From Candidatus Kapaibacterium sp. (lineage in GTDB: Bacteria > Bacteroidota > Ignavibacteria > Kapaibacteriales > UBA2268): a DNA stretch of 64,000 bases. The notes beneath the pieces were generated by a model that worked only from the letters and a program-made list of their open reading frames with translations, ran no database searches and had not been told where the DNA came from. Location of the stretch: positions 1,952,001-2,016,000 of the forward strand of contig OY762428.1 in the NCBI GenBank assembly GCA_963665665.1, given 5' to 3'. Positions 8,129 to 54,416 of the stretch are shown one piece after another (the stretch's first letter is position 1; every line of letters starts with the position of its first letter). The position numbers were made by a program, and so were the translations under genes.

Positions 8129-8159
8129 CTCACCCGATCGCTTGAAGTCATCGGTTGAG
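8129..8159. repeat. REP-like palindrome family A, copy 1 (probable terminator)
   Basis: ctcacccgatcgcttgaagtcatcggttgag followed by a T-tract. Confidence 0.75.
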
Positions 8160-30785: not shown

Positions 30786-30814
30786 ACATCCGATGACTTA
30801 AAGTCATCGGATGT
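30786..30814. repeat. REP-like palindrome family A, copy 3 (glnS terminator)
   Basis: acatccgatgactt-a-aagtcatcggatgt followed by a T-tract. Confidence 0.8.
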
Positions 30815-30860
30815 TTTTTTATAAAGTCCTGATAAGTAATATAGTTATAAAATCATAAAT

Positions 30861-30925
30861 ACTTGTGAAAAATAATTATGATTATTTGTTTTTTTCTTGC
30901 TTTTTCAATTTCTTTTATTTAAGTT
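30861..30925 (+). promoter_or_regulatory. Conserved promoter of module 1: TGTGA element + TTGCTT-N17-TAAGTT
   Basis: Same layout at 42244-42304 and 52609-52671 (minus strand). Confidence 0.65.
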
Positions 30926-30958
30926 CATGTCAGATCATATTAAGTGTATTTTATAACA

Positions 30959-31219
30959 GAGCCAATGCTTTTATTAAGCCAAAATTATTGGAGGTTGAGA
31001 TGAACAGAAGCCCGTAGCAGAATATTATCCCCATAACAGCAATAATAAAAAGGCCGGGGAAAGCCCCGACCCCACATTGACTCTACGTTCCCACCGAAAA
31101 GGAATATTATAGAGGACAATGTGCCATATTTTTCAGACGCTCTTGCGTTTGCTGTATTGCGTTGCAGTAAATGCAATGAAATTTTCAAAAAATGTAAAAA
31201 TAACAAAATAGTGTGATAT
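30959..31219 (+). ncRNA. Putative structured 5' leader RNA with 5-codon uORF (MNRSP, 31000-31017)
   Basis: Near-identical to the reverse complement of 52253-52506; three predicted hairpins. Confidence 0.5.
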
Positions 31220-31840
31220 ATGAAAAAGACAATATTTTTAATATTTGCAGTATTAGTGCTTTCGTTTAGTTTAAGCCAAAATGCTGAAGCAGGTTGTTCT
31301 CCTGGATGGGATGAGTATTCAGTATCCGGAACATATTACCACAATGGTACATTGTGCAATTATACTGCTTATTACTGCGTTTTTGTCGATGCTATGGGAA
31401 TGATAAATTCTTATATTGACAGGATTTCTATTGATTACGCATGTATTGATGTTTTTACGGAAGATGGATTTTGGATGAATGTTGAGAATGAAGTTATAAA
31501 TCACTTAATAGAAAATGGTAGTTTCTCTCAATGCCCATTGTCTTCATACAATGTATCAATAAAAAGAAGTCAATGTTGGAAAGTAATAAATATACCCTGC
31601 CAAGGAATCTACGAAATTGTAAATTGCGGTTATGTTGGTGCATGCCAGTATCTATATAAAGTATGTACTGACTATACCCAAAATCCACCGGAAAATCAGT
31701 GGGAAATTGTTTCCAGACAAGCGATCGGAACAGCTGATTGTAACGATCAGGGATTGCCGGACTTACCCCCAGACGGAAAAACAAAAGAAGATGAATGGGA
31801 AACAGATTGTTTTCTGATTGGATGTTTTAATTGTAATTAA
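31220..31840 (+). CDS. Secreted cysteine-rich protein (14 Cys), unknown function
   Basis: Sec signal MKKTIFLIFAVLVLSFSLSQNAEA; no T9SS CTD; signal peptide shared with 51608-52252. Confidence 0.8.
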   Translation: MKKTIFLIFAVLVLSFSLSQNAEAGCSPGWDEYSVSGTYYHNGTLCNYTAYYCVFVDAMGMINSYIDRISIDYACIDVFTEDGFWMNVENEVINHLIENGSFSQCPLSSYNVSIKRSQCWKVINIPCQGIYEIVNCGYVGACQYLYKVCTDYTQNPPENQWEIVSRQAIGTADCNDQGLPDLPPDGKTKEDEWETDCFLIGCFNCN

Positions 31841-31846
31841 TTATTA

Positions 31847-31874
31847 TGCTTCCTTGGCTTATGTCAAGGAAGCA
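31847..31874 (+). other. Intergenic hairpin without a strong U-tract
   Basis: tgcttccttggc-ttat-gtcaaggaagca. Confidence 0.6.
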
Positions 31875-31896
31875 ATTTTATTGAAAAGGTGATTTT

Positions 31897-34119
31897 ATGT
31901 TGAAATATTTATTATTTATTTTTTTTCCGATAATTGCTTTCTCTAACGAACTAAATTTCGACTATAAAAGATTGACCATTGATTATTCGGGAATTGCTTC
32001 CAATGACAAAGCGGCTTTATTCTATGGCAATGCAGACTTTATAACGAAGTTTGTATTTGCAGATAATGAATGGGAAAATATTTATTTGAATACAGGAATA
32101 GATAGAATTTCAAGTATCAGAAACGACGATGAAGGTTTTTTCGGCGTGTTTAACAAACAAAATGTTTTTCGGCTTGACTCCGATGGCTGTTTAGTAGAAA
32201 TACAGGAAATTACAGGCGATTCCTTGCTTGTATTGAAAGATATACAAAAGTTTGAAAATAATTATTATATACTAAGCGATAAAAAAATCATCGTCTTAAA
32301 TTCAGATCTTCATTTTGAAAATGAAATAACGTTTAACGGGAATATTGGTGTCACTGAGTTTATAATATTTAACAACCAGTTGATTGTAGGCACCGAAAAT
32401 GCCCGGCTGATATTATACAATCTTCCATCCCTAAATGATAATAATATTCTTAATCTTTATGAATTAGGGCTTTGCGATCCGGATGTCAAAATCAGCAGTT
32501 TTAAAAAATCATCAGGCCTTTTTTATTTTATTGACGGAACTAAAATATACTCTACTGAAGATTTTTCTGATTTTATTGCCCACGAAACAAAAAATCTATT
32601 CTACGAAGTTTGCGACGGAAATATTTTTACAATGGCTATCGGAGGAAACAGATTAAACAGGTTGCTTTTTTATGGTTATACCGAACAAGGGCCGTATTCC
32701 ATAAGCACTGGTATTTTAGACAGATATACAGGTATGCTCTATACGGTTTGTTTCAATTTTATTGATAAAAGTCAATTATTTGTTGTTGGTAATGACAATT
32801 TTATTTCTCGTTCAACAGACGGGGGAATACATTGGGAAGTACAATCCTATTATACCTTGGGAAACTTTAGTTTTTCTTTAAACGATAAATTTGCTTTCCA
32901 GATAGAAAAAAATGCGCTTTTTTTTAAAACAACCAACGGCGGAATTACCTGGCTGACCCAACTTGCGAATAGCTATTCATTTGATAATTTCAACGGAGAT
33001 TACGCTTATCACTTTTCTGAAGACGGCAGGGGTGTAATTTTCAGGTCTCATACCCAGGGCAGCAGCCCCCAGGCTTTAATAACAACAGACAGCGGCAATA
33101 CTTATAAAGCAGTTAGAATTGATTCGATTAGATCTTACGGATTTATCGGTAGTTCAGCGCCATTAATCAGAAATAATAGCGAGTATGAACTGTTTTACCC
33201 TGCGATGTTTGGAACAACATATAAATATACTCTGCATTTTACGCTTGATTTGGATCTAAATTGCAAAAGGAAGGAACTTCTTGATTCTATTCAGATATTT
33301 CAAATTTTGAAACGTAAACAAGGCTGGATTGCCCTGTCGCAAAATTATAAAAGCTCCTCCGGAGAAAATAATGTTTACCAATTGCTATGGGCGGAGAAAC
33401 TCGGAATTGATTGGGAGGTTCTTGCAACGATGAATGTTAAAGATACAATTTTACAGGGAATGACAATCATTGACGACAACGCATATCTTAACGGAATTGT
33501 TTGGGATGAACCGGAAGATATAAATATTTATAAAATTTGTTATATAGTTAATCTGAATTCCTACGAATATAAATTGATAAGAAGTGATAATCGAGGATAT
33601 TATAATAGTTTCATCAAATTAAATGATAATATCGTTACCGGAATAAAAGAAGGTTTTTTATATAACGATGATATAAATAATAATCCATATAAATGGGAAG
33701 TTGATTCAATTCCTGATTGTTCTATTACGTGGCTATCAACTTTATTTCAAAATCAATGTTTTGCAATAACAGCCGGAGCCCTTAAAAAATTCACATTCTA
33801 CGAAGATACACCAGTAGAAGAACCAGGGGCAGAAGTAATAAAAATGTACAACTATCCTCCATATCCACAACCTGCAAACAACCATGTTAGTACGGAAATA
33901 TACTGGGATAGCAGGTACGATATGCAAAACGCCGCAATAACAGTACACGACTACACGGGCAAAACAATCAGCAAACCCGGCGAGATAAGCGTAAACAAGA
34001 TGAATGTATATCACGGCGAAATAATCTGGGACTGCTCCTCAGTCTCATCAGGAGTGTATTTTATTAATATCCGTCTTGGCGGCACAACAAGGACTGTGCC
34101 GGTTGTTGTGGGAAGGTAG
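31897..34119 (+). CDS. BNR/Asp-box beta-propeller protein with T9SS CTD
   Basis: Signal peptide; RSTDGGIHW, KTTNGGITW and TTDSGNTY motifs; CTD PPYPQPA...SSGVYFINI. Confidence 0.8.
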   Translation: MLKYLLFIFFPIIAFSNELNFDYKRLTIDYSGIASNDKAALFYGNADFITKFVFADNEWENIYLNTGIDRISSIRNDDEGFFGVFNKQNVFRLDSDGCLVEIQEITGDSLLVLKDIQKFENNYYILSDKKIIVLNSDLHFENEITFNGNIGVTEFIIFNNQLIVGTENARLILYNLPSLNDNNILNLYELGLCDPDVKISSFKKSSGLFYFIDGTKIYSTEDFSDFIAHETKNLFYEVCDGNIFTMAIGGNRLNRLLFYGYTEQGPYSISTGILDRYTGMLYTVCFNFIDKSQLFVVGNDNFISRSTDGGIHWEVQSYYTLGNFSFSLNDKFAFQIEKNALFFKTTNGGITWLTQLANSYSFDNFNGDYAYHFSEDGRGVIFRSHTQGSSPQALITTDSGNTYKAVRIDSIRSYGFIGSSAPLIRNNSEYELFYPAMFGTTYKYTLHFTLDLDLNCKRKELLDSIQIFQILKRKQGWIALSQNYKSSSGENNVYQLLWAEKLGIDWEVLATMNVKDTILQGMTIIDDNAYLNGIVWDEPEDINIYKICYIVNLNSYEYKLIRSDNRGYYNSFIKLNDNIVTGIKEGFLYNDDINNNPYKWEVDSIPDCSITWLSTLFQNQCFAITAGALKKFTFYEDTPVEEPGAEVIKMYNYPPYPQPANNHVSTEIYWDSRYDMQNAAITVHDYTGKTISKPGEISVNKMNVYHGEIIWDCSSVSSGVYFINIRLGGTTRTVPVVVGR

Positions 34120-34157
34120 TTGCTTTAATGGGAATTATAATTGTTTATAAAATTAAC

Positions 34158-39939: not shown

Positions 39940-42174
39940 TCACCGCCCTACAACCACCGGCACAGTCCTTGTTGTACCGCCAAGGCGGATATTAATAAAA
40001 TACACTCCTGAAGAGACCGAGGAACAATCCCAGATTATTTCGCCGTGATATACATTCATTTTGTTTACGCTTATCTCTCCGGGTTTGCTGATTGTTTTGC
40101 CCGTGTAGTCGTGCACGGTTATTGTGGCGTTTTGCATATCGTACCTGGCATCCCAGTATATTTCCGTACTAACACGGTTGTTTGCAGGTTGTGGATATGG
40201 AGGATAGTTGTACATTTTTATTACTTCTGCCCCTGGTTCTTCTACTGGTGTATCTTCGTGGAATGTGAATTTTAGAAAATGTCTGTCAAGGGTATAAGCA
40301 TACATTGTATTGTCAAAAAAACCGGTTATTTTCCAAACGAAGTATCCCGGTACCGGTTCTTTCTTCCAATAATAGGGATTGTTTTCAATATCCTCGCAAT
40401 ACAAAAGGCAATTGTCACCTCCGGCTACGATGTTGTTTTCCCATTTTATTAAAAATGCTTTATATCCTGATTCGTTGTCCAATCTTATTCTTTTATATGT
40501 ATTTGTTTTTAGGTCAACTTTGAACAAAGGATGCCTGCTGTTTGTATCTTCACCCGGATACCAAACAATACCACTGAGGAAAATATTATCATCGATTATT
40601 GACATATAATTTATTATTGTATCCATCATGCTCAGATTAACAAGTGTATCCCAGGCAACACCTGGCGCATCTGCCGTAAGTATCTGATATGTGTTAGTAT
40701 CTACCCCATAGCCATCTTCATGTCTTCCGTCAAATGAAAGCGCATAATATTTGCCATTATATTTTTGTATATTAAAAAGCTTAGCTGAATCTATACATTC
40801 AGTACTTTTGCAATTCATATCTAAGTCCAATGTAAAAATAAGTGTATAATACAAAGATTTGAATCTGGAAGGATAAAACACTTTATATTCATCATTTATT
40901 CTGATAATTGGAGCATCAGAGCTAAAACCATATCCGTATATTTCATCAATACAAGTTGTATCCCATGTATCGCCGTAGTCATTTGTGTAAAATGTGGTTG
41001 GATAATTGACCTGTGAATGGCTGCCGAAAATAACACCCCTGCCATCTTCGCTGTAGAAATAAGAATATCCTAATGACCAATTCTTTAGATTATAGTTGCC
41101 TGTTTTTTGTGTTTGCCATGATACTCCTCCATTCCTTGTTTTGTAAACTTCTTCTTTTCTTTCTGTCTGGTATCCTGTATTAACATTTACCCATTGCATA
41201 CTTCCACTCGGGTTTAGGTATGATATTAATTCCCAGTTATACCCGCCGTCAGTTGATCTTAAAATTAAATTTTGGGAACCGTAAGCAAAAATCAAATTCG
41301 AATTAATAAATTCAAAACCTATTATCCTGAGCATTTCGCAATACCTGTCTAATTCCGGGTTGCTGATTTGCTCAACTATAGAATCGCTGCTACGGCAGAA
41401 TTTTACAAGGTTATAATCACTGCTGCCAAAACCTGTATATGAATGAATGGAATAAATATTATCATCATAAATATTGAATACTAATGAACCGCTATTTTTT
41501 TTGGTATAATTTTTTAGATCGTTTGTTTGATAAATTGAACTGCCAACCAAAATGTAAAGATCAGAGTTGTATTTTTTAAAACGATAAATTTTAGCAGCAG
41601 AATCCAGGTAGCCCTTTTCTACAAAATCAAATATTTTCGGCTCGTTATCAATGCCATTAACAAATGAATAAAGCGAACCGTTTGTTGTCCCGACAATCAG
41701 ATTATCGTTGAATAATTCCATTTCAGTTGGTACAATATTTTCATCTAAATAAACGGAATTTATTTTTTCAAAATCATTATCAAGAATATCAATACTGTTC
41801 TCATTAAGAATCAAGAAATTATTATCAAGTTTGATTACATCTTTAAATTTTGAAATCGCATCAAAAGATTTTGTATTCAATGGCCTACCTTCACTGTTCA
41901 ACCTAAAAACAGATTGTTCGGATATACCGTAAAAACCGCTATCTTCATTCCTGATTTTGATAATATCGGTTTCCTCGTTAATGATTTTTATCAATTCCCA
42001 GTTTTCATTATTCAAATCAGTTCTTGCAATAGAATTATTAGCCCCGTAAAAAAATATGTAATTATCATTAAAAACCAAGCCGTCGTAATGCATATCCAGC
42101 CGTTGATAATCAAATTTCAAACCGGCATTGGAAATATATACAATTATTAAGAATAGCGGTAATATCTTTTTCAT
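39940..42174 (-). CDS. BNR/Asp-box beta-propeller protein with T9SS CTD (paralog of 31897-34119)
   Basis: RSTDGGYNW and KTRNGGVSW motifs; last ~110 aa almost identical to 31897-34119; start set at ATG 42174. Confidence 0.8.
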   Translation of the reverse strand: MKKILPLFLIIVYISNAGLKFDYQRLDMHYDGLVFNDNYIFFYGANNSIARTDLNNENWELIKIINEETDIIKIRNEDSGFYGISEQSVFRLNSEGRPLNTKSFDAISKFKDVIKLDNNFLILNENSIDILDNDFEKINSVYLDENIVPTEMELFNDNLIVGTTNGSLYSFVNGIDNEPKIFDFVEKGYLDSAAKIYRFKKYNSDLYILVGSSIYQTNDLKNYTKKNSGSLVFNIYDDNIYSIHSYTGFGSSDYNLVKFCRSSDSIVEQISNPELDRYCEMLRIIGFEFINSNLIFAYGSQNLILRSTDGGYNWELISYLNPSGSMQWVNVNTGYQTERKEEVYKTRNGGVSWQTQKTGNYNLKNWSLGYSYFYSEDGRGVIFGSHSQVNYPTTFYTNDYGDTWDTTCIDEIYGYGFSSDAPIIRINDEYKVFYPSRFKSLYYTLIFTLDLDMNCKSTECIDSAKLFNIQKYNGKYYALSFDGRHEDGYGVDTNTYQILTADAPGVAWDTLVNLSMMDTIINYMSIIDDNIFLSGIVWYPGEDTNSRHPLFKVDLKTNTYKRIRLDNESGYKAFLIKWENNIVAGGDNCLLYCEDIENNPYYWKKEPVPGYFVWKITGFFDNTMYAYTLDRHFLKFTFHEDTPVEEPGAEVIKMYNYPPYPQPANNRVSTEIYWDARYDMQNATITVHDYTGKTISKPGEISVNKMNVYHGEIIWDCSSVSSGVYFINIRLGGTTRTVPVVVGR

Positions 42175-42243: not shown

Positions 42244-42306
42244 AATGTAGGAAATATTTTATACATAAGCAAGAAAAAATAAATAACCTTAATTTTTTTT
42301 CACAAG
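42244..42306 (-). promoter_or_regulatory. Conserved promoter: TGTGA element + TTGCTT-N17-TACATT
   Basis: Homologous to 30861-30925 and 52609-52671. Confidence 0.6.
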
Positions 42307-42614
42307 CGGAAATGCTTCTCCACTAACTGCCTGTCGGGATATTGGTATCCCGCAAAGCAATTTTACAAATATCATTTCTTCATGGGTAAAAGATTGTTTG
42401 ACAGTGCAATCAGAATAATGCTTCAAGACTTTTGAGACATTAGCTTCTACCCCCGTAATTACTATTCAAATAAATTATTCAAAACGGGAAAATACTCAGG
42501 CGATTATTCGTCAATTGTAATTTAAGGGTATAATTTAATATTATTTTTTGGCAATTTACCCGTTCTTTTATTAAATTCAGAAATTATTGAAATATTAATA
42601 TACACGGCAGAGAT

Positions 42615-49069: not shown

Positions 49070-51517
49070 CTACTTCTCCACCACTATCGGAATACTGTCC
49101 GTGATGCCGTTGTGACGGACGAGTATGAAATAAATGCCCGAGGGTACTGCCGAGCAGTTCCAGATGAATTCAGCCGAGGCTTTGTTTAGGTGGTTGACTT
49201 TAATATTTTCTTTTCCCTGAACTTTCTCGCCGGATAGATCGTAAACGCCCATAATTGATTCTTCAAGATCGAAGCTCATATCGTAGGATATCAGGGTTTT
49301 TATCAGGTTGCGGCCCGGCAAGGGATATGGATTCCCTGCATAGAAATGATTAGTGTAGTAAAGCTTTTCGGCTTGTATTTCAACCCCGACCGGGGCGTGT
49401 TCTTCTGTCATCATGCGGTAGTAGTTGAAGGGGCGCAGGCTGTCACTTAGCCCGACGAGAGACACATTGCCCTTGCATATAACGGAAGAAAATGTCGGGC
49501 GGCCATAATCCCAAGGGGCGTCCTCCCATTTCGTCAGGTCGTTTCGGTCAGTATTTTCAAGGAAAAGCTCCTCGCCGAGAATGTAGAACTTCCCGCTAAG
49601 TTCCATAAAGAAAATGCTGTCCAGCTCAGCGTTTTCGTAAAGATTATCGAATGTATTGCGTTTCCTGTCGTACATCAGTATTCGCGCGGGATATGTAGCT
49701 GCAAAGAAAACAGAATCCTTGTTCAGTTCGTATATCTGCTTAACGGCTAACGAATCCTCGATTTTGCAAATAGATGTTTTTGTTTTGCCGCTGTCATTAG
49801 TTTCAAAAACCTCGAAACTCGTAAAATTATGATACCTGTCTTCCTTTACCGAGCAAAACATAAGGAAATTCTCAAATTCTTCAGCCAGAATATGATGAAC
49901 ATAGAATAGAGAATCATAAGTTATATACCTGAAATTTTCAAAATTTTTATCAGTAAAGTAAAACATTGTGCCTGATTTTTCATATGAGTCTGTACAAATA
50001 AACATATAATTATTATTTATTTCAATAACATTGCTACCTTTTGCAAGTTTGTTTGAATTGCTGGAATAGAAATTATTTAATGAAAGTAATTTAAAAGTAC
50101 GTCCGGCATCCTGTGTAATTGCTATATTATTTTTATCTGTATCAACAACTTTTTCAAACCCAATAAAACCACTACCATCACTGCTAAAGTGCTTTACAAT
50201 CGGACCTAAATTCCATGATAGTAAACTATTGCTGGTATCTGACAAATAAGTAGGCTTAAATGAATTGCCATAATTGTAGCTGCTGTTTATCTCATTATAA
50301 TTTGATTTCGAATATCCACTTCCAAAATTAATATCATTATAAAATATATAAACAGAATCATTAATAATTTTTTCAGGAACTCCCGATAAAAAGGACAAAA
50401 GAGACCAGTTAGCACCTTTATCTGCCGAAATCATAAGCGAACGACTCATACCTGCTTTTACATATATTCCATTCTTTAATATATTACACTTTTTTGTAAA
50501 CAAGCCTGACGAAAGATCGTAACAACCTTTGTTTTCTGCTCCAATTGTTTGGTATTTATTTATATAATGCTTATTGATTAATTTGAAAGTGTCTTTAGGT
50601 ATTTCGCTATATATTTTTATCAGCATATTTGTTGATCCTTGGTCGTTGCCTTCCAGACTTACTCCATATAGATCTTCGTTATCAGTAAAATAAGTATTGT
50701 CATTAATCCAACGCTTAAGATATATCAATGAATCACTTCGATTCATGAACAGACTGTCCTGGAAAAAGAAATTCCAATTATTGTAATCATCGCTCATTCT
50801 GTATAAATTGCCTCCGATATTAAATATATTTTCATCCTTTATTTTATAAATATCATTCAGATTATAATATTCCGGATTGGTGGTATATACTTTCCCCTTC
50901 ATATTTATCATTTTGAAATTCTCAAGCTCTGATGTTAGTTTTGCAAAACCGTTGTTTTCTGATATAAGGTCTATTAGCAAATCGTTTTTTAATAAAAATA
51001 TATTCGAAACCGAATAATTTTCATAATATACTTTGGGCTTGTAATAGAATGAATCAATTTTGCTCTCAATTATTACGTTTTCAAAATGATTAATCAAATT
51101 CATATCTTTATCATAACGCAGAATACTTTTCAAACTTCTAACATAAACAAAATTGTCAGATATAATAATATTTATTAGTCGGTTTGAAGTATCAATCAAA
51201 ACATTAAACTGTTCCCAATTTAAGCCATTATTAACCGATCTGATAACATTACCGTAATTTACTACTCCCCACAAGGTATCATTATAATTAACAATTTTAT
51301 TAATCTGCCCTCTCTGAGCGATACATTTTTGCCTCCAGCTTTGCCCTTTATCGGTTGAAAGCAGGTAAGCCCCGTTAGTCCCGTAAGAAATAATGTTATC
51401 CCCCGCTCCAACGGCCCCGAGATAATGAATTTTCAGCGGCATCAGGTTGAAAGTTTCGGAATATGAATAAGTAAAGCAATTGAAAGTAATGATTAAAATA
51501 ATAGAAAAATATTTCAT
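49070..51517 (-). CDS. BNR/Asp-box beta-propeller protein with T9SS CTD (more distant paralog)
   Basis: STDKGQSW, SVNNGLNW and SADKGANW motifs; CTD NPYPLPG...VPSGIYFILV. Confidence 0.8.
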   Translation of the reverse strand: MKYFSIILIITFNCFTYSYSETFNLMPLKIHYLGAVGAGDNIISYGTNGAYLLSTDKGQSWRQKCIAQRGQINKIVNYNDTLWGVVNYGNVIRSVNNGLNWEQFNVLIDTSNRLINIIISDNFVYVRSLKSILRYDKDMNLINHFENVIIESKIDSFYYKPKVYYENYSVSNIFLLKNDLLIDLISENNGFAKLTSELENFKMINMKGKVYTTNPEYYNLNDIYKIKDENIFNIGGNLYRMSDDYNNWNFFFQDSLFMNRSDSLIYLKRWINDNTYFTDNEDLYGVSLEGNDQGSTNMLIKIYSEIPKDTFKLINKHYINKYQTIGAENKGCYDLSSGLFTKKCNILKNGIYVKAGMSRSLMISADKGANWSLLSFLSGVPEKIINDSVYIFYNDINFGSGYSKSNYNEINSSYNYGNSFKPTYLSDTSNSLLSWNLGPIVKHFSSDGSGFIGFEKVVDTDKNNIAITQDAGRTFKLLSLNNFYSSNSNKLAKGSNVIEINNNYMFICTDSYEKSGTMFYFTDKNFENFRYITYDSLFYVHHILAEEFENFLMFCSVKEDRYHNFTSFEVFETNDSGKTKTSICKIEDSLAVKQIYELNKDSVFFAATYPARILMYDRKRNTFDNLYENAELDSIFFMELSGKFYILGEELFLENTDRNDLTKWEDAPWDYGRPTFSSVICKGNVSLVGLSDSLRPFNYYRMMTEEHAPVGVEIQAEKLYYTNHFYAGNPYPLPGRNLIKTLISYDMSFDLEESIMGVYDLSGEKVQGKENIKVNHLNKASAEFIWNCSAVPSGIYFILVRHNGITDSIPIVVEK

Positions 51518-51566
51518 GATTAATCCTAAATAAGAATAAAATATTTATTATCAATAAAATTATCGA

Positions 51567-51588
51567 AGGATTGGAAAAATCCAATCCT
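51567..51588 (-). other. Intergenic hairpin between the Cys-rich gene and the T9SS gene
   Basis: aggattgga-aaaa-tccaatcct. Confidence 0.6.
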
Positions 51589-51607
51589 CCATATTAAAAA
51601 ATACTAC

Positions 51608-52252
51608 TTATTCACAATGACTTATGACACCACGTACTTTTGAACATAAGATAGACCATGGTTTTGAACTGTATTCATATCCAGGAACTCCATCTCCATA
51701 TGGTTCTTTTACACATTCACCATTACCAGTTAAATAAGTATAATTCCAAGTTATAACGGGATGTGGCACACAATCTGGATCAGTATCGCAATCAGGGGTG
51801 CAATTACACATACATATTGTTAAATTTAAAGTACACCTTAAGTCACATGTTTCGCTTCTTGTATAATTCAAATACGTACCATTCCAAAATATGTCATAAC
51901 AAACGGGATCAGTAATTTCCAGAGTTAGTGAACCCTGATCGCATGGTTGCAACCCACAAAAATCGCCATGATTGTTATAAATGTAATTATACGTCGCATC
52001 CCAAATGGCATCTTCATATCCTGGACATACGTTGTTAACCGCCAAAATTTCAACTTTTGTAAAGAAATTGCCTGTTGGGCTACATGTGTAGCAAACAACT
52101 ACTTCTGCATCAGGACAACCAGGGACAAAATCTCCCACTGGTAAAGTTGTACAAATCCCAGGTGTAAGACAAGCCGCGCATGGATCCTGTGCCTGGCTTA
52201 AACTAAACGAAAATACTAATACTGCTATTACTAAAAATATTGTCTTTTTCAT
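51608..52252 (-). CDS. Secreted cysteine-rich protein (20 Cys), unknown function
   Basis: Signal MKKTIFLVIAVLVFSFSLSQA; Cys spacing partly alignable with 31220-31840. Confidence 0.8.
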   Translation of the reverse strand: MKKTIFLVIAVLVFSFSLSQAQDPCAACLTPGICTTLPVGDFVPGCPDAEVVVCYTCSPTGNFFTKVEILAVNNVCPGYEDAIWDATYNYIYNNHGDFCGLQPCDQGSLTLEITDPVCYDIFWNGTYLNYTRSETCDLRCTLNLTICMCNCTPDCDTDPDCVPHPVITWNYTYLTGNGECVKEPYGDGVPGYEYSSKPWSILCSKVRGVISHCE

Positions 52253-52483
52253 ATATCACACTATTTTGTTATTTTTACATTTTTTGAAAATTTCATTGCA
52301 TTTACTGCAAAGCAATACAGCAAACGTAAGAGCGTCTGAAAAACAAGGCACATTGTCCTCTAATATTCCTTTGCTTGGACGTAGAGTCAATGTGGGGTCG
52401 GGGCTTTCCCCGGCCTTTTTATTATTGCTGTCATGGGGATAATTTTTGTTACGGGCTTCTGTTCATCTCAACCTCCAATAATA
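52253..52483 (-). ncRNA. Putative structured 5' leader, copy 2 (uORF MNRSP at 52449-52466)
   Basis: Reverse complement near-identical to about 30980-31219. Confidence 0.5.
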
Positions 52484-52574
52484 TTGGCTTAATAAAAGCA
52501 TTGGCTTAATAAAAGCATTGGCTTAATAAAAGCATTGGCTTAATAAAAGCATTGGCTTAATAAAAGCATTGGCT
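52484..52574. repeat. 17-bp tandem repeat TTGGCTTAATAAAAGCA x5 plus a partial unit
   Basis: Perfect units start at 52484, 52501, 52518, 52535 and 52552; a single unit occurs at the homologous site near 30960-30982. Confidence 0.95.
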
Positions 52575-52608
52575 CCACTGTTTTCAATTTGAAATATAAC
52601 TTTGGATA

Positions 52609-52673
52609 AAGTTAATTAAAAGAAAATAAAAAAGCAAGAAAAAAAATCAATAATCTTAATTATTTTTCACAAG
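52609..52673 (-). promoter_or_regulatory. Conserved promoter of module 2: TGTGA element + TTGCTT-N17-TAACTT
   Basis: Homologous to 30861-30925. Confidence 0.65.
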
Positions 52674-52720
52674 TATTTCTATTTTTATAACTATATTACT
52701 TGTCAGGATATTATAAAAAA

Positions 52721-52741
52721 ACATCCGATGACTTTAAGTCA
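52721..52741. repeat. REP-like palindrome family A, copy 6 (truncated)
   Basis: acatccgatgactttaagtca; the outer part of one arm is missing. Confidence 0.7.
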
Positions 52742-52943
52742 GGATAGGTGTCGATAAAATCAAATATATCCCTACCGAGCGAAACGTCGTCATTATCGTA
52801 AGTATTAAACGGTTCCGCGTCAAAATCCTGATCATCGTAACAGTCATAGAGATTATGCAACAATCCGGCCATTTGTGATATTTTCGTTTTCCTTATCCAC
52901 TCTGCTTGAGCTTCTGCCGGCGGAAGCGTATTATCATAACCGG

Positions 52944-53057
52944 CTACTCTTGGAAAACGTCTTCCTTCCTGGTCATACCTGAGTCTTCCCATTCACCGTA
53001 AGAATATGAAAACACTGATAATAGGAATATAAGGCTTAGGGTTAATTGCTTTTTCAT
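52944..53057 (-). pseudogene. Truncated fifth member of the tandem T9SS array (signal peptide only)
   Basis: MKKQLTLSLIFLLSVFSYSYGEWED followed by unrelated SGMTRKEDVFQE*. Confidence 0.8.
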
Positions 53058-53069
53058 TGGATTGCCTTT

Positions 53070-54416
53070 CTATTTTATAATTATCATTTTCTTGCTGGCA
53101 GCAATTCTGCCGTTTATCTCTATTGCATATACATATACTCCTGTAGGAAATTCCCCGGCGTCAATAGTAATGGCGCAGGGCCTGCCAAAACATGCTTCGG
53201 TTTCTTTTATTATACTTTCGCCCCTTTCGTCGCTGATAATCAACCGGACGCTGCCGCTGTAATTATCGGGAATATAATACATTATCTCGGTTTCATCCGA
53301 AAAGGGGTTGGGGTTGTTCTGGTAAAGGAGGATATCGCTGCCGTTCATTTCCTCTCCTTCTATTCCCATTACTTCGTCAACTATACAATCGGTTAGTTCG
53401 TGGCGAAAATACCTGTTTGTCCAGAATTTCATTGACAGGATGGCATAATTATTATTAAAAATCGGAACATAAGGTTCCATATCTCCCGGTATAATCTTTT
53501 GCCATGTAAATCCCTGGTCTGTTGATAAAAATAATCCAGCCGATGAGTTGATATTATTAACTAAAGCGCTTGCATATAAATTTTTATTGCAACTCGAAAA
53601 TTGATTCAAACAAGTATAATAGTGTTTGCCTTCAATAACACCATTATTGAATTCATGAATCTTTTCCCAGCTCATGCCATTATTTATAGTGGAAAACAGG
53701 TAGGGTCCAATCGATAAAAAAACTTTGTTTTCTATGTTTGTAATTCCGCGTTGAAGATAATGCCTATAAGTATTAAACACATTTCTAATCTCTTGATTTG
53801 TTATAATTTTCCAGTCAAGGCCGTTATATGAAAACAATATTTCCCTTGTTGTAAGTGCGAATAATCCCTTGCCCAGTGCTCCAAAGCCTTTGTTCGTAGC
53901 TAATATCTCGTCCGAATTTCCGGCATTGTTTCCGTAATCTCGGAAAGTCCAGGTAGTTCCGCCATCTGCGGAATAATAATAACCAATATATTTTTCTCGC
54001 AACATATATAATGTATCATTTTGCGCGGTAATCTGCTTTATTCTAAAAAAATAGCAATCCTCGTTATTATCATCTTTCAATACAATTCTTTCGAAAGTAT
54101 TACCCTTATTTTTAGAAACAAAACATCTTCCGCTCGTTGTCTGAACTATCAGGCTTTCGTTAATAAATTGCAAATATTCAAGAGATTTATCATTATATTC
54201 ATTTTTAAATACCAAAAACTGCTCCCATGATTCGCCATTATCAGGGGAATAATATATTGTACTATCCATCGCAATATAAAGAGTATCCGAATAGCTAGCC
54301 ATATTGTAATATAATGGGAATTTCGGAAAATTTAAAGAAAGGTCTTCCCATTCACCGTAAGAATATGAAAACACTGATAATAGGAATATTAGGCTTAATG
54401 TTAATTGCTTTTTCAT
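53070..54416 (-). CDS. BNR/Asp-box T9SS cargo protein, tandem array member
   Basis: Signal peptide; SPDNGESW, SADGGTTW and STDQGFTW motifs; CTD LYQNNPNPF...PTGVYVY...KKMIIIK. Confidence 0.85.
   Translation of the reverse strand: MKKQLTLSLIFLLSVFSYSYGEWEDLSLNFPKFPLYYNMASYSDTLYIAMDSTIYYSPDNGESWEQFLVFKNEYNDKSLEYLQFINESLIVQTTSGRCFVSKNKGNTFERIVLKDDNNEDCYFFRIKQITAQNDTLYMLREKYIGYYYSADGGTTWTFRDYGNNAGNSDEILATNKGFGALGKGLFALTTREILFSYNGLDWKIITNQEIRNVFNTYRHYLQRGITNIENKVFLSIGPYLFSTINNGMSWEKIHEFNNGVIEGKHYYTCLNQFSSCNKNLYASALVNNINSSAGLFLSTDQGFTWQKIIPGDMEPYVPIFNNNYAILSMKFWTNRYFRHELTDCIVDEVMGIEGEEMNGSDILLYQNNPNPFSDETEIMYYIPDNYSGSVRLIISDERGESIIKETEACFGRPCAITIDAGEFPTGVYVYAIEINGRIAASKKMIIIK

Follow-up and report, generated by a model that had tools for sequence, protein, structure and literature searches.

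A multi-copy family of gene pairs for a small Cys-rich secreted protein and a tandem-propeller protein, with repeat-bearing leaders, in a Candidatus Kapaibacterium genome

A 64,000-nt stretch from the genome of Candidatus Kapaibacterium sp. (GenBank assembly GCA_963665665.1, contig OY762428.1, positions 1,952,001 to 2,016,000 of the forward strand; below, the window) carries two loci, A and B, in which a gene for a small, cysteine-rich (Cys-rich) secreted protein is followed by a gene for a beta-propeller protein. The propeller is predicted to be a type IX secretion system (T9SS) cargo. The genome consists of a single contig of 5.46 Mb with 38.6% GC. An earlier reading of the window, made from its letters without database searches (the sequence-only reading), had pointed out the two loci and proposed a two-component surface system. 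Here, we describe the two cassettes, their copies in this genome and in relatives, and the functional interpretation that these suggest.

The cassettes in the window

The elements of both loci, and of a third member of the propeller family in the window, are listed with their positions in the window. The T9SS type of C-terminal domain is abbreviated as CTD, and an open reading frame as ORF. Promoter boxes are predicted rather than mapped.

30786-30820, plus strand: terminator hairpin of glnS with T-run (13-bp stem followed by TTTTTTT), a member of a REP-like (repetitive extragenic palindrome) family
30821-30902, plus strand: promoter-upstream block of locus A that is shared among cassettes, with a predicted -33-like box CTTG (30896-30899) as its end
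30920-30927, plus strand: predicted -7-like box TAAGTTCA of locus A, 20 nt 3' of the -33-like CTTG
30961-30982, plus strand: 17-nt repeat unit GCCAATGCTTTTATTAA in about 1.3 copies, the variable-number tract of the locus A leader
30990-31017, plus strand: GGAGG and a five-codon mini-ORF (ATG AAC AGA AGC CCG TAG; MNRSP) within the locus A leader
31050-31174, plus strand: structured part of the locus A leader (GC-rich hairpin 31050-31073, long-range hairpin 31073-31123, hairpin 31145-31174)
31220-31840, plus strand: gene for small Cys-rich secreted protein A (206 aa, 14 Cys)
~31220-31291, plus strand: Sec signal peptide of small protein A, which has no CTD
31847-31874, plus strand: intergenic hairpin A (12-bp stem, tail ATTTTATTGA), 22 nt 5' of the propeller ATG; candidate partial terminator
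31897-34119, plus strand: gene for propeller A (740 aa: signal peptide, tandem beta-propellers, type-A T9SS CTD at ~33862-34116)
52607-52741, minus strand: shared promoter-upstream block of locus B with predicted -33-like CTTG (52638-52635) and -7-like TAACTTTA (52614-52607)
52483-52574, minus strand: 17-nt tandem repeat of the locus B leader (5.4 perfect copies; 100% matches, score 184)
52253-52466, minus strand: remaining leader of locus B, with mini-ORF (52466-52449), GC hairpin (52415-52396) and distal hairpins
51608-52252, minus strand: gene for small Cys-rich secreted protein B (214 aa, 20 Cys; subtype I)
51564-51591, minus strand: intergenic hairpin B (12-bp stem, tail ATAATTTTAT)
49070-51517, minus strand: gene for propeller B (815 aa, with BNR/Asp-box motifs and CTD)
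39940-42174, minus strand: orphan propeller without a small gene (744 aa), the third family member in the window
42267-42306, minus strand: fragment of the shared promoter-upstream block before the orphan propeller, with 88% identity to query positions 69-109

The ORFs are found where the sequence-only reading had placed them, the gene order is the same at both loci, and a hairpin lies between the small gene and the propeller gene at each. The upstream DNA and the signal-peptide codons had been called near-identical. This is borne out: the region ~30795-31280 aligns with the reverse complement of ~52741-52195 almost base for base. The sole long gap in this alignment corresponds to the extra copies of the 17-nt repeat in locus B. 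At locus A, the sequence shared by the cassettes starts immediately 3' of the glnS terminator, and directly 3' of the signal peptide the identity between the loci drops sharply. The mature small proteins have diverged strongly, as had been claimed (27% identity over 125 residues), and the two propellers, with 26% identity over 413 residues (E 5e-21), are paralogs. The similarity between the loci is well beyond chance because the genome holds five copies of the leader (E 1e-145 to 1e-172). The Cys counts of 14 and 20 are also correct, but their evenness is not a rule because other copies have 13 or 21 Cys.

Copies of the cassette and its two proteins

A profile hidden Markov model (HMM) of the small protein detects nine copies in the genome, and in all nine cases a propeller of the family is encoded not more than 400 nt downstream. 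The two loci of the window are thus real, but they are not the complete set: the genome carries nine pairs and, in addition, five orphan propellers. There are 13 close paralogs of the propeller (E below 1e-180), eight of them with an upstream small gene, the other five being the orphans. Five cassettes (A, B, c1, c2 and c5) have a common leader (class 1), the x1 and x2 pairs have a second leader class in common, and the leader of the x3 pair is unique to it. The leader comparisons cover these eight pairs; the small gene of the ninth is located at 88940-89551. In the x2 pair, the propeller gene is intact, but an in-frame TAA interrupts the diverged 5' part of the small gene (G000 4886472-4887086, minus strand; G000 denotes the genome of the window), which is a probable pseudogene or donor copy.

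The orphan propeller of the window has 46% identity to propeller A overall and is near-identical to it over the last 110 residues. In four of the orphans, the first ~80 nt of the class-1 leader are found directly before the propeller gene. The shared part ends at the -33-like CTTGC, and we infer that this block may be a common promoter/operator region. A stretch of ~190-200 nt with internal GC-rich inverted repeats is located just 5' of the retained promoter block in three of the orphan upstream regions (window ~42310-42500, minus strand; G000 2605354 and 2365954), and in two of these regions it visibly splits the block. It may be a miniature mobile element.

The small protein belongs to no curated family. 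Neither of the two small proteins of the window matches a Pfam family, the only NCBIfam match is at chance level and on the signal peptide, and PADLOC returned no matches. In the ESM Atlas, the small protein matches unnamed Bacteroidota clusters exclusively (scores 0.86-0.89). As stated in the sequence-only reading, the small proteins have a Sec signal peptide and no CTD, according to the ORFs and the signal-peptide reading. An alignment of 64 sequences has nine invariant and two nearly invariant columns, and all of these are Cys. A disulfide-locked scaffold with a free surface fits better than an enzyme because only Cys columns are invariant. The AlphaFold2 model of small protein A, based on this 64-row alignment, has a predicted local distance difference test score (pLDDT) of 92.9 and a predicted TM-score (pTM) of 0.84. 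In this model, about ten strands and two helices make up an alpha/beta fold. Foldseek found no PDB chain at E <=0.001 for this model, and the best Z score of VIA-align against 48,161 chains is 4.5, which is below the usual level for unrelated models. The predicted fold is thus without a neighbour in PDB, which does not by itself prove a new fold.

For the propellers, the assignment to the T9SS had been based on the CTD. Propeller A exceeds the cut-off for Por_Secre_tail (Pfam PF18962; 28.7 bits, cut-off 27), but propeller B stays below it (16.2 bits). With TIGR04183, both are below the cut-off of 23 bits (21.2 bits for propeller A, 14.0 for propeller B). The C-terminus of propeller B aligns with that of propeller A, and both propellers have a hydrophobic N-terminus (N-terminal Sec signal). 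The genome codes for SprA (956.6 bits, cut-off 200) and for at least 150 CTD proteins. From these sequence features, the propellers are predicted to be T9SS-type cargo. Their domain matches are weak (BNR, Ycf48, F510_1955 glycosylhydrolase-like): BNR (PF02012) scores 27.1 bits in propeller B (cut-off 27), and PSII_BNR (PF14870) scores 21.5 bits in propeller A, below the cut-off of 27. A further, 448-aa propeller of the Sortilin/BNR type (53070-54416, minus strand) adjoins locus B. It has a weak T9SS CTD match and is, by its size, outside the cassette propeller family.

The AlphaFold2 model of propeller A (pLDDT 84) consists of two beta-propellers followed by a terminal beta-sandwich. PorZ is a component of the T9SS attachment complex; it is encoded by a single-copy gene and binds anionic lipopolysaccharide (A-LPS). 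The first-ranked Foldseek match of the propeller A model is this protein (5M11; E 1.9e-18, TMq 0.43, 12% identity), and the next matches are the tandem-propeller sensor domains of hybrid two-component systems from Bacteroides. At the sequence level, the propellers match no PorZ or regulator-propeller family of Pfam or NCBIfam at E <=0.1. This lack of a family match, together with the 13 close paralogs, rules out that the propeller is a PorZ ortholog. PorZ from Porphyromonas gingivalis (PDB 5M11; PMC5121618, PMC8545088) resembles propeller A in having two beta-propellers followed by a T9SS CTD within ~750 aa. Unlike PorZ, which is one essential machine component, the cassette propellers have Asp-box/BNR motifs and 13 close paralogs. 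PorZ is not known to have a Cys-rich partner gene, in which it also differs from the cassette propellers.

The distribution was analyzed with a profile built from the 64-sequence alignment of the small protein. Of 120 other genomes from the taxonomic family to which this one belongs, 78 carry the protein, with as many as 20 copies in a single genome. By genus, it occurs in 44 of 55 (a count that includes the genome of the window). When genomes were sampled across the phylum, the small protein was detected in 8 of 17 that belong to four families of this order and in none of 283 from other families. In a full HMM scan of 1.84 billion cluster representatives, 108 matches were obtained at E <=0.001 and 40 at E <=1e-10, compared to seven relatives in a word-index protein search. 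About 15 of the 108 matches are long Cys-rich proteins with multiple stretches. The sources of two relatives of the propeller are an Ignavibacteriaceae bacterium and a Candidatus Kapaibacteriota bacterium. From these searches, the cassette family appears to be confined to one order of T9SS-bearing bacteria from the Fibrobacterota-Chlorobiota-Bacteroidota (FCB) group.

That the gene pair is a conserved unit can be confirmed beyond the window. In addition to the nine pairs of this genome, 35 of 38 small ORFs in three well-assembled relatives (G128, G072 and G099) have an ORF of the propeller family behind them, at a median distance of ~66 nt. Two further small-gene matches in relatives, which had been missed by ORF calling, likewise precede propellers. 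One relative carries an 18-kb tandem array on one strand (L076, G128:C1:463500-481800) with four small genes and five propellers, one propeller being without a small gene. Exceptions from the pairing are L081 (G128), L102 755-1390 and L103 (G099), and L040 (G006:C43). Among the exceptions are three small genes without a family propeller downstream, and in one case a different large protein (at least 750 aa) comes next.

The divergence of the small proteins correlates with that of the propeller cores. For 34 pairs, the Mantel r is 0.78, a value that was reached in none of 2000 permutations, and r ranges from 0.77 to 0.91 within single genomes. This test was made without the x2 pair, the ninth pair of the window genome, small ORFs below 170 aa, and propellers that are cut off or below 650 aa. 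A complex prediction for mature small protein A and propeller A minus its CTD, run without controls, gave scores of 0.00, 0.34 and 0.00 (mark 0.32), which speak neither for nor against binding. The sequence-only reading had recognized no described system, and this still applies: the small proteins, the propellers and the pair are without a match to a described family or operon in Pfam, NCBIfam, PADLOC or the literature searched, where no paper on a cassette of a Cys-rich protein and a propeller was found.

Many copies, cores that diverge together and a fixed gene order would also be expected from a bacteriocin-like or toxin-immunity cassette, in which the small protein acts as a toxin or antimicrobial and the propeller is its cognate partner for immunity, as a receptor decoy or for export. 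A disulfide-rich scaffold with a variable surface fits such an effector. We consider this improbable for several reasons. Neither the small proteins nor the propellers match PF14055 (NVEALA) or PF17170 (DUF5128) at E <=0.1, and no PADLOC model applies. No dedicated exporter, peptidase or double-glycine leader is encoded beside the loci, both of which are flanked by housekeeping genes. The small protein has 200 aa and an ordinary Sec signal, and no way by which it could leave the periplasm is known. Finally, display outside the cell by the T9SS is unexpected for an immunity protein.

Leaders, repeats and mosaic identity

The leaders of the cassettes carry simple repeats, and these differ in kind between leader classes and between genomes. 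In the class-1 leaders, the 17-mer GCCAATGCTTTTATTAA is present in ~1.3 (A), 2 (c1), 2 (c2), 5.4 (B) and 8.4 (c5) copies. The genome has only two perfect arrays of period 17, both in class-1 leaders. These are two of the ten arrays with a period of 10-40 when those of period 21 are set aside. The class-2 leaders (x1 and x2) have a T13 tract 201 nt 5' of the ATG, and these two tracts are among the six A/T runs of 12 or more in the 5.46-Mb genome. In G128 (2.66 Mb), (GA)7 or longer occurs at five places, four of which are 189-211 nt upstream of small genes, and the fifth is 207 nt upstream of an orphan propeller. Two other leaders from G128 have G8 or G9. A (TA)5-15 tract is located 124-260 nt 5' of the ATG in 11 of 18 full-length leaders from G072 and in 7 of 9 from G099, and its length varies from copy to copy. 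Contingency loci carry a hypermutable tract in the promoter, the 5' untranslated region or the reading frame, and such a tract is located in the leaders here (17-mer, T13) as well as in relatives ((GA)n, (TA)n, G9), at a constant distance from the ATG. Four unrelated slippery tracts at the equivalent place in leaders without shared sequence argue for selection of mutability itself, a hallmark of contingency loci.

The -33/-7 promoter consensus is that of Bacteroidota. Leaders from the relatives have, when read by eye, TTTG-N19/20-TAAnTTG at the corresponding place. As the repeat tracts are located 3' of the promoter-like boxes, they are probably transcribed.

Tandem arrays with a period of 21 nt are found at 51 places in the genome (3.6-20 copies, 90-98% matches), many of them with the unit TGAACACTTGGTTGACCTTAC. 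Examples are G000 156660-156917, 546328-546606 and 5180355-5180777.

Identity along the cassettes is mosaic. The promoter and leader of ~430 nt, together with the signal peptide, have 87-95% identity among the five class-1 copies, and the promoter-upstream block itself has 88-95% identity in the five cassettes. At the other end, the subtype-I propellers (B, c1 and c2) are ~90-97% identical in 100-nt windows over their last 650-900 nt, with 89-94% identity of B (~49070-49955) to the other two, and the last ~340 nt of the subtype-II propellers (A, c5, x1 and x2; 33782-34121 in A) are 88-93% identical. Between these uniform ends, the cassette cores have 40-60% DNA identity, which is near saturation. 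Reassortment between leader class and core type is seen in A and c5, which have the leader of the subtype-I copies and the CTD of x1 and x2. The x1 and x2 pairs are a patchwork of 93-96% identical tracts and diverged tracts. Homogenization within the genome is also seen in G128, G072 and G099, with ~75-96% identity upstream over up to 596 nt and 3' ends of up to 97% identity. The near-identity of noncoding leader and silent sites beside saturated cores points to repeated gene conversion. For concerted evolution, a pattern was considered in which the ends group by genome and the cores across genomes. The nearest-neighbour test did not discriminate, as 27-29 of 34 cassettes have their nearest neighbour in the same genome for all parts.

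The leader itself might be functional, as a riboswitch, an attenuator or a small RNA. Its conservation would then be due to selection on RNA structure rather than to gene conversion. Several features speak for a structured RNA. The locus A leader has a minimum free energy (MFE) of -75.1 kcal/mol and is more stable than shuffled sequences (z -3.15; 0 of 100 shuffles as stable). The same three hairpins recur in the five class-1 copies. The mini-ORF behind the Shine-Dalgarno-like GGAGG is kept in all five, its stop codon varying among stop codons only (TAG or TAA). This account is nevertheless very unlikely. Nowhere in the window does an Rfam model reach its gathering score, and the four matches at E <=1 (21-28 bits) are far under the gathering scores. 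Leader DNA was searched in 120 genomes of the same taxonomic family and gave only AT-rich matches of 22-84 nt, which were judged to be due to chance. An exact 26-nt leader pattern was absent from the metagenome contigs searched. Selection on the specific leader sequence is unlikely because the leader is missing from these 120 genomes and because leaders show no similarity even between two species of one genus. In addition, the coding sequences for signal peptide and CTD, including silent sites, are homogenized to an equal degree. The five copies are too alike for covariation. The mini-ORF was rejected as a general conserved leader peptide, because leaders from other genomes, when read by eye, do not retain it. 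Pairing of the 17-mer array with the distal region, as in hmw, is unsupported by the MFE folds, in which all pairing of the array is internal.

On the minus strand, the GC-rich leader hairpin 31050-31073 is followed by TTTATTATTG and scores as terminator-like. No minus-strand promoter was found by eye. The hairpin could end an antisense transcript or be a relic. At locus B, an acidic ORF of 93 aa without a Pfam match (52711-52992, minus strand) ends at the start of the conserved leader and overlaps a partial copy of the terminator palindrome.

Each of the eight cassettes examined in this genome has an intergenic hairpin, the ungapped stem of which is 11-15 bp long. Three of the eight are copies of the REP-like palindrome (CATCCGATCAC..GTGATCGGATG and variants), which has 29-33 copies genome-wide (at 8134, 10470 and 30790 in the window). 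The survey was extended to 39 intergenic regions of at least 30 nt from four genomes. Among these, 27 contain a stem without gaps that reaches 8 bp or more and includes three or more GC pairs, and in 24 the hairpin is followed by at least five T in the next 10 nt. Many intergenic hairpins of G072 and G099 resemble full intrinsic terminators. The distance from the end of the hairpin to the propeller ATG is 20-46 nt, which leaves no room for a separate propeller promoter. The propeller would therefore be expressed by read-through, with the small protein in excess.

A contingency-type reading and its known counterparts

We interpret the loci as a contingency-type, multi-copy family of two-gene surface cassettes with unstable-repeat leaders and gene-converted ends, and put the probability of this reading at roughly 0.55. 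Each cassette would be one operon, in which the shared promoter block is followed by the leader, the small gene, the hairpin and the propeller gene. The 5' leader would extend for ~290-400 nt from the predicted promoter boxes and would be structured, with a hypermutable repeat tract. Slippage would change the length of this tract and could set or switch the output of each cassette independently. The hairpin would let pass only part of the transcripts, leading to an excess of small protein over propeller. The propeller would be exported through the T9SS and held on the surface, while the small protein would fold and become oxidized in the periplasm and act with its own propeller. Segmental gene conversion would keep promoter, leader, signal peptide and CTD near-identical, with the cores staying far apart. 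A cell would thus own several distinct surface modules that are all regulated and secreted in one format. The two-component interpretation of the sequence-only reading is partly supported by these results. The features most telling on mechanism were not part of that reading: the unstable repeats of the leaders, the mosaic left by gene conversion, and the promoter block that also precedes propeller genes without a small gene. The likeliest purpose of such a system would be a variable surface or ligand-binding coat, e.g., against phages or grazers, and the sequence suggests that this bacterium may vary its surface as some pathogens do.

A number of points weigh against this interpretation. Promoter, transcription start, attenuation and relative abundance are predicted from sequence alone. 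The differences in repeat length are between paralogs, not between strains or within a population. In the short-read assemblies of two samples, the contigs break exactly at the leader and the CTD, where the summed depth is about six-fold; in all four sequencing runs considered, the contigs break at the leader, and none bridges the repeat tract. Locus A, with its 1.3 repeat units, may be locked. (TA)n tracts are also found elsewhere in the AT-rich genomes of the relatives, and in G006 three of the seven listed places with (TA)7 or longer precede a known small gene, the control pattern being uninformative for (TA)n. Three cassettes in G128 have a gap of less than 30 nt and no hairpin. The partnership of small gene and propeller is not obligatory, given the five close propellers without a small gene and the three small genes without a propeller. 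The Mantel correlation of 0.78 is expected from co-duplication alone: the cores travel together, which does not imply binding. The ordinary Sec signal of the small protein provides no known route across the outer membrane.

The evidence from the second sample belongs here, too. A contig from that sample spans 31131-33829 with five differences in 2,699 nt. In the flanking housekeeping DNA, there are 13 differences in 1,206 nt and 23 in 1,826 nt. The small protein had been called hypervariable in the sequence-only reading. This is true between paralogs but not between samples, where the locus A core varies less than the housekeeping flanks. With this core so nearly identical, rapid diversification that is still going on is not apparent. 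The cores are old and stable, and it is among paralogs that diversity is found. Also, a lineage-specific expansion is mixed in, because the nearest neighbours of every part are mostly from the same genome.

Some of these observations are what one would expect from an ordinary, lineage-specific expansion of T9SS-exported BNR propellers that bind glycans or resemble glycosidases, accompanied by a periplasmic helper (a folding or maturation factor). The near-identical ends would then reflect recent duplication with neutral conversion, and the repeats would be incidental products of AT-rich, recombining DNA, without a role in switching. The weak BNR, Ycf48 and F510_1955 glycosylhydrolase-like matches of the propellers, the orphan paralogs, the grouping by genome, the stability of the locus A core between two samples and the (TA)n tracts elsewhere in relatives are all in line with this account, which we nevertheless regard as doubtful. 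Four unrelated kinds of repeats occur at the same place in the leader and are strongly concentrated there (all five (GA)n places in G128, two of six long A/T runs here). Noncoding leaders with 87-95% identity beside cores with 40-60% require ongoing conversion and not a single recent duplication. Moreover, the small protein conserves Cys only, without catalytic-looking residues, which fits a variable-surface scaffold and less so a housekeeping helper.

The contingency-type reading can be taken further. It is tempting to speculate that free-living, Ignavibacteria-like bacteria have a true contingency system. Nine to twenty cassettes would each be switched independently by a slippery repeat in a transcribed leader and would be reshuffled continually through gene conversion at their uniform ends. 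Changing combinations of surface modules would be displayed, with phages or grazers as the likely selective pressure. The small protein, without a CTD, locked by disulfides and of a new fold, would pass the outer membrane via the T9SS as a passenger of its cognate PorZ-like double propeller. In this complete form, we consider it unlikely. If riding and switching were both true, the small protein would be the first T9SS cargo known to hitch-hike, and antigenic variation in the manner of pathogens would be described for the first time from an environmental lineage of the FCB group.

If switching and partnership are real, the cassettes would offer a tractable handle on surface variation, on T9SS cargo that carries partners, and on repeat leaders that tune expression. 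The small-protein family comprises about a hundred 50%-identity clusters without annotation. Since the cassettes break short-read assemblies at leader and CTD, they are systematically fragmented in metagenome-assembled genomes.

Surface-protein families that are switched by repeats and undergo gene conversion are textbook knowledge for host-adapted Neisseria, Haemophilus and Mycoplasma. The opa genes of Neisseria and the vsp genes of Mycoplasma are similar multigene families of surface proteins. To our knowledge, repeat-switched surface families are hardly known from free-living bacteria or from T9SS-bearing lineages. Contingency logic would here appear in an environmental group, built from a new small-protein family and a PorZ-like tandem propeller.

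Two known systems come close in organization. In Haemophilus influenzae, the level of the adhesin HMW1A is set by a transcribed repeat in the 5' untranslated region, according to PMC12721329. The resemblance of hmw1A/hmw2A to the cassettes comprises paralogous loci for secreted surface proteins and a variable-number repeat (a heptamer in Haemophilus) that is located 3' of the promoter in a long structured leader. The repeat number differs between copies in both cases; for the cassettes, transcription of the repeat and its effect on expression are predicted from the sequence. Unlike the cassettes, with Sec and T9SS, the hmw loci belong to another phylum and rely on two-partner secretion; their proteins are unrelated to those of the cassettes, and the repeat unit is different. 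The second system is vlhA from Mycoplasma gallisepticum. This family (PMC6258824) has many paralogs, near-identical 5' regions and signal peptides, diverged mature parts and a repeat near the promoter, all of which the cassettes have in common with it. In contrast, families of the vlhA type consist of a single lipoprotein or porin-like gene and belong to host-associated pathogens, whereas the family described here is a two-gene cassette from a (probably) free-living FCB bacterium.

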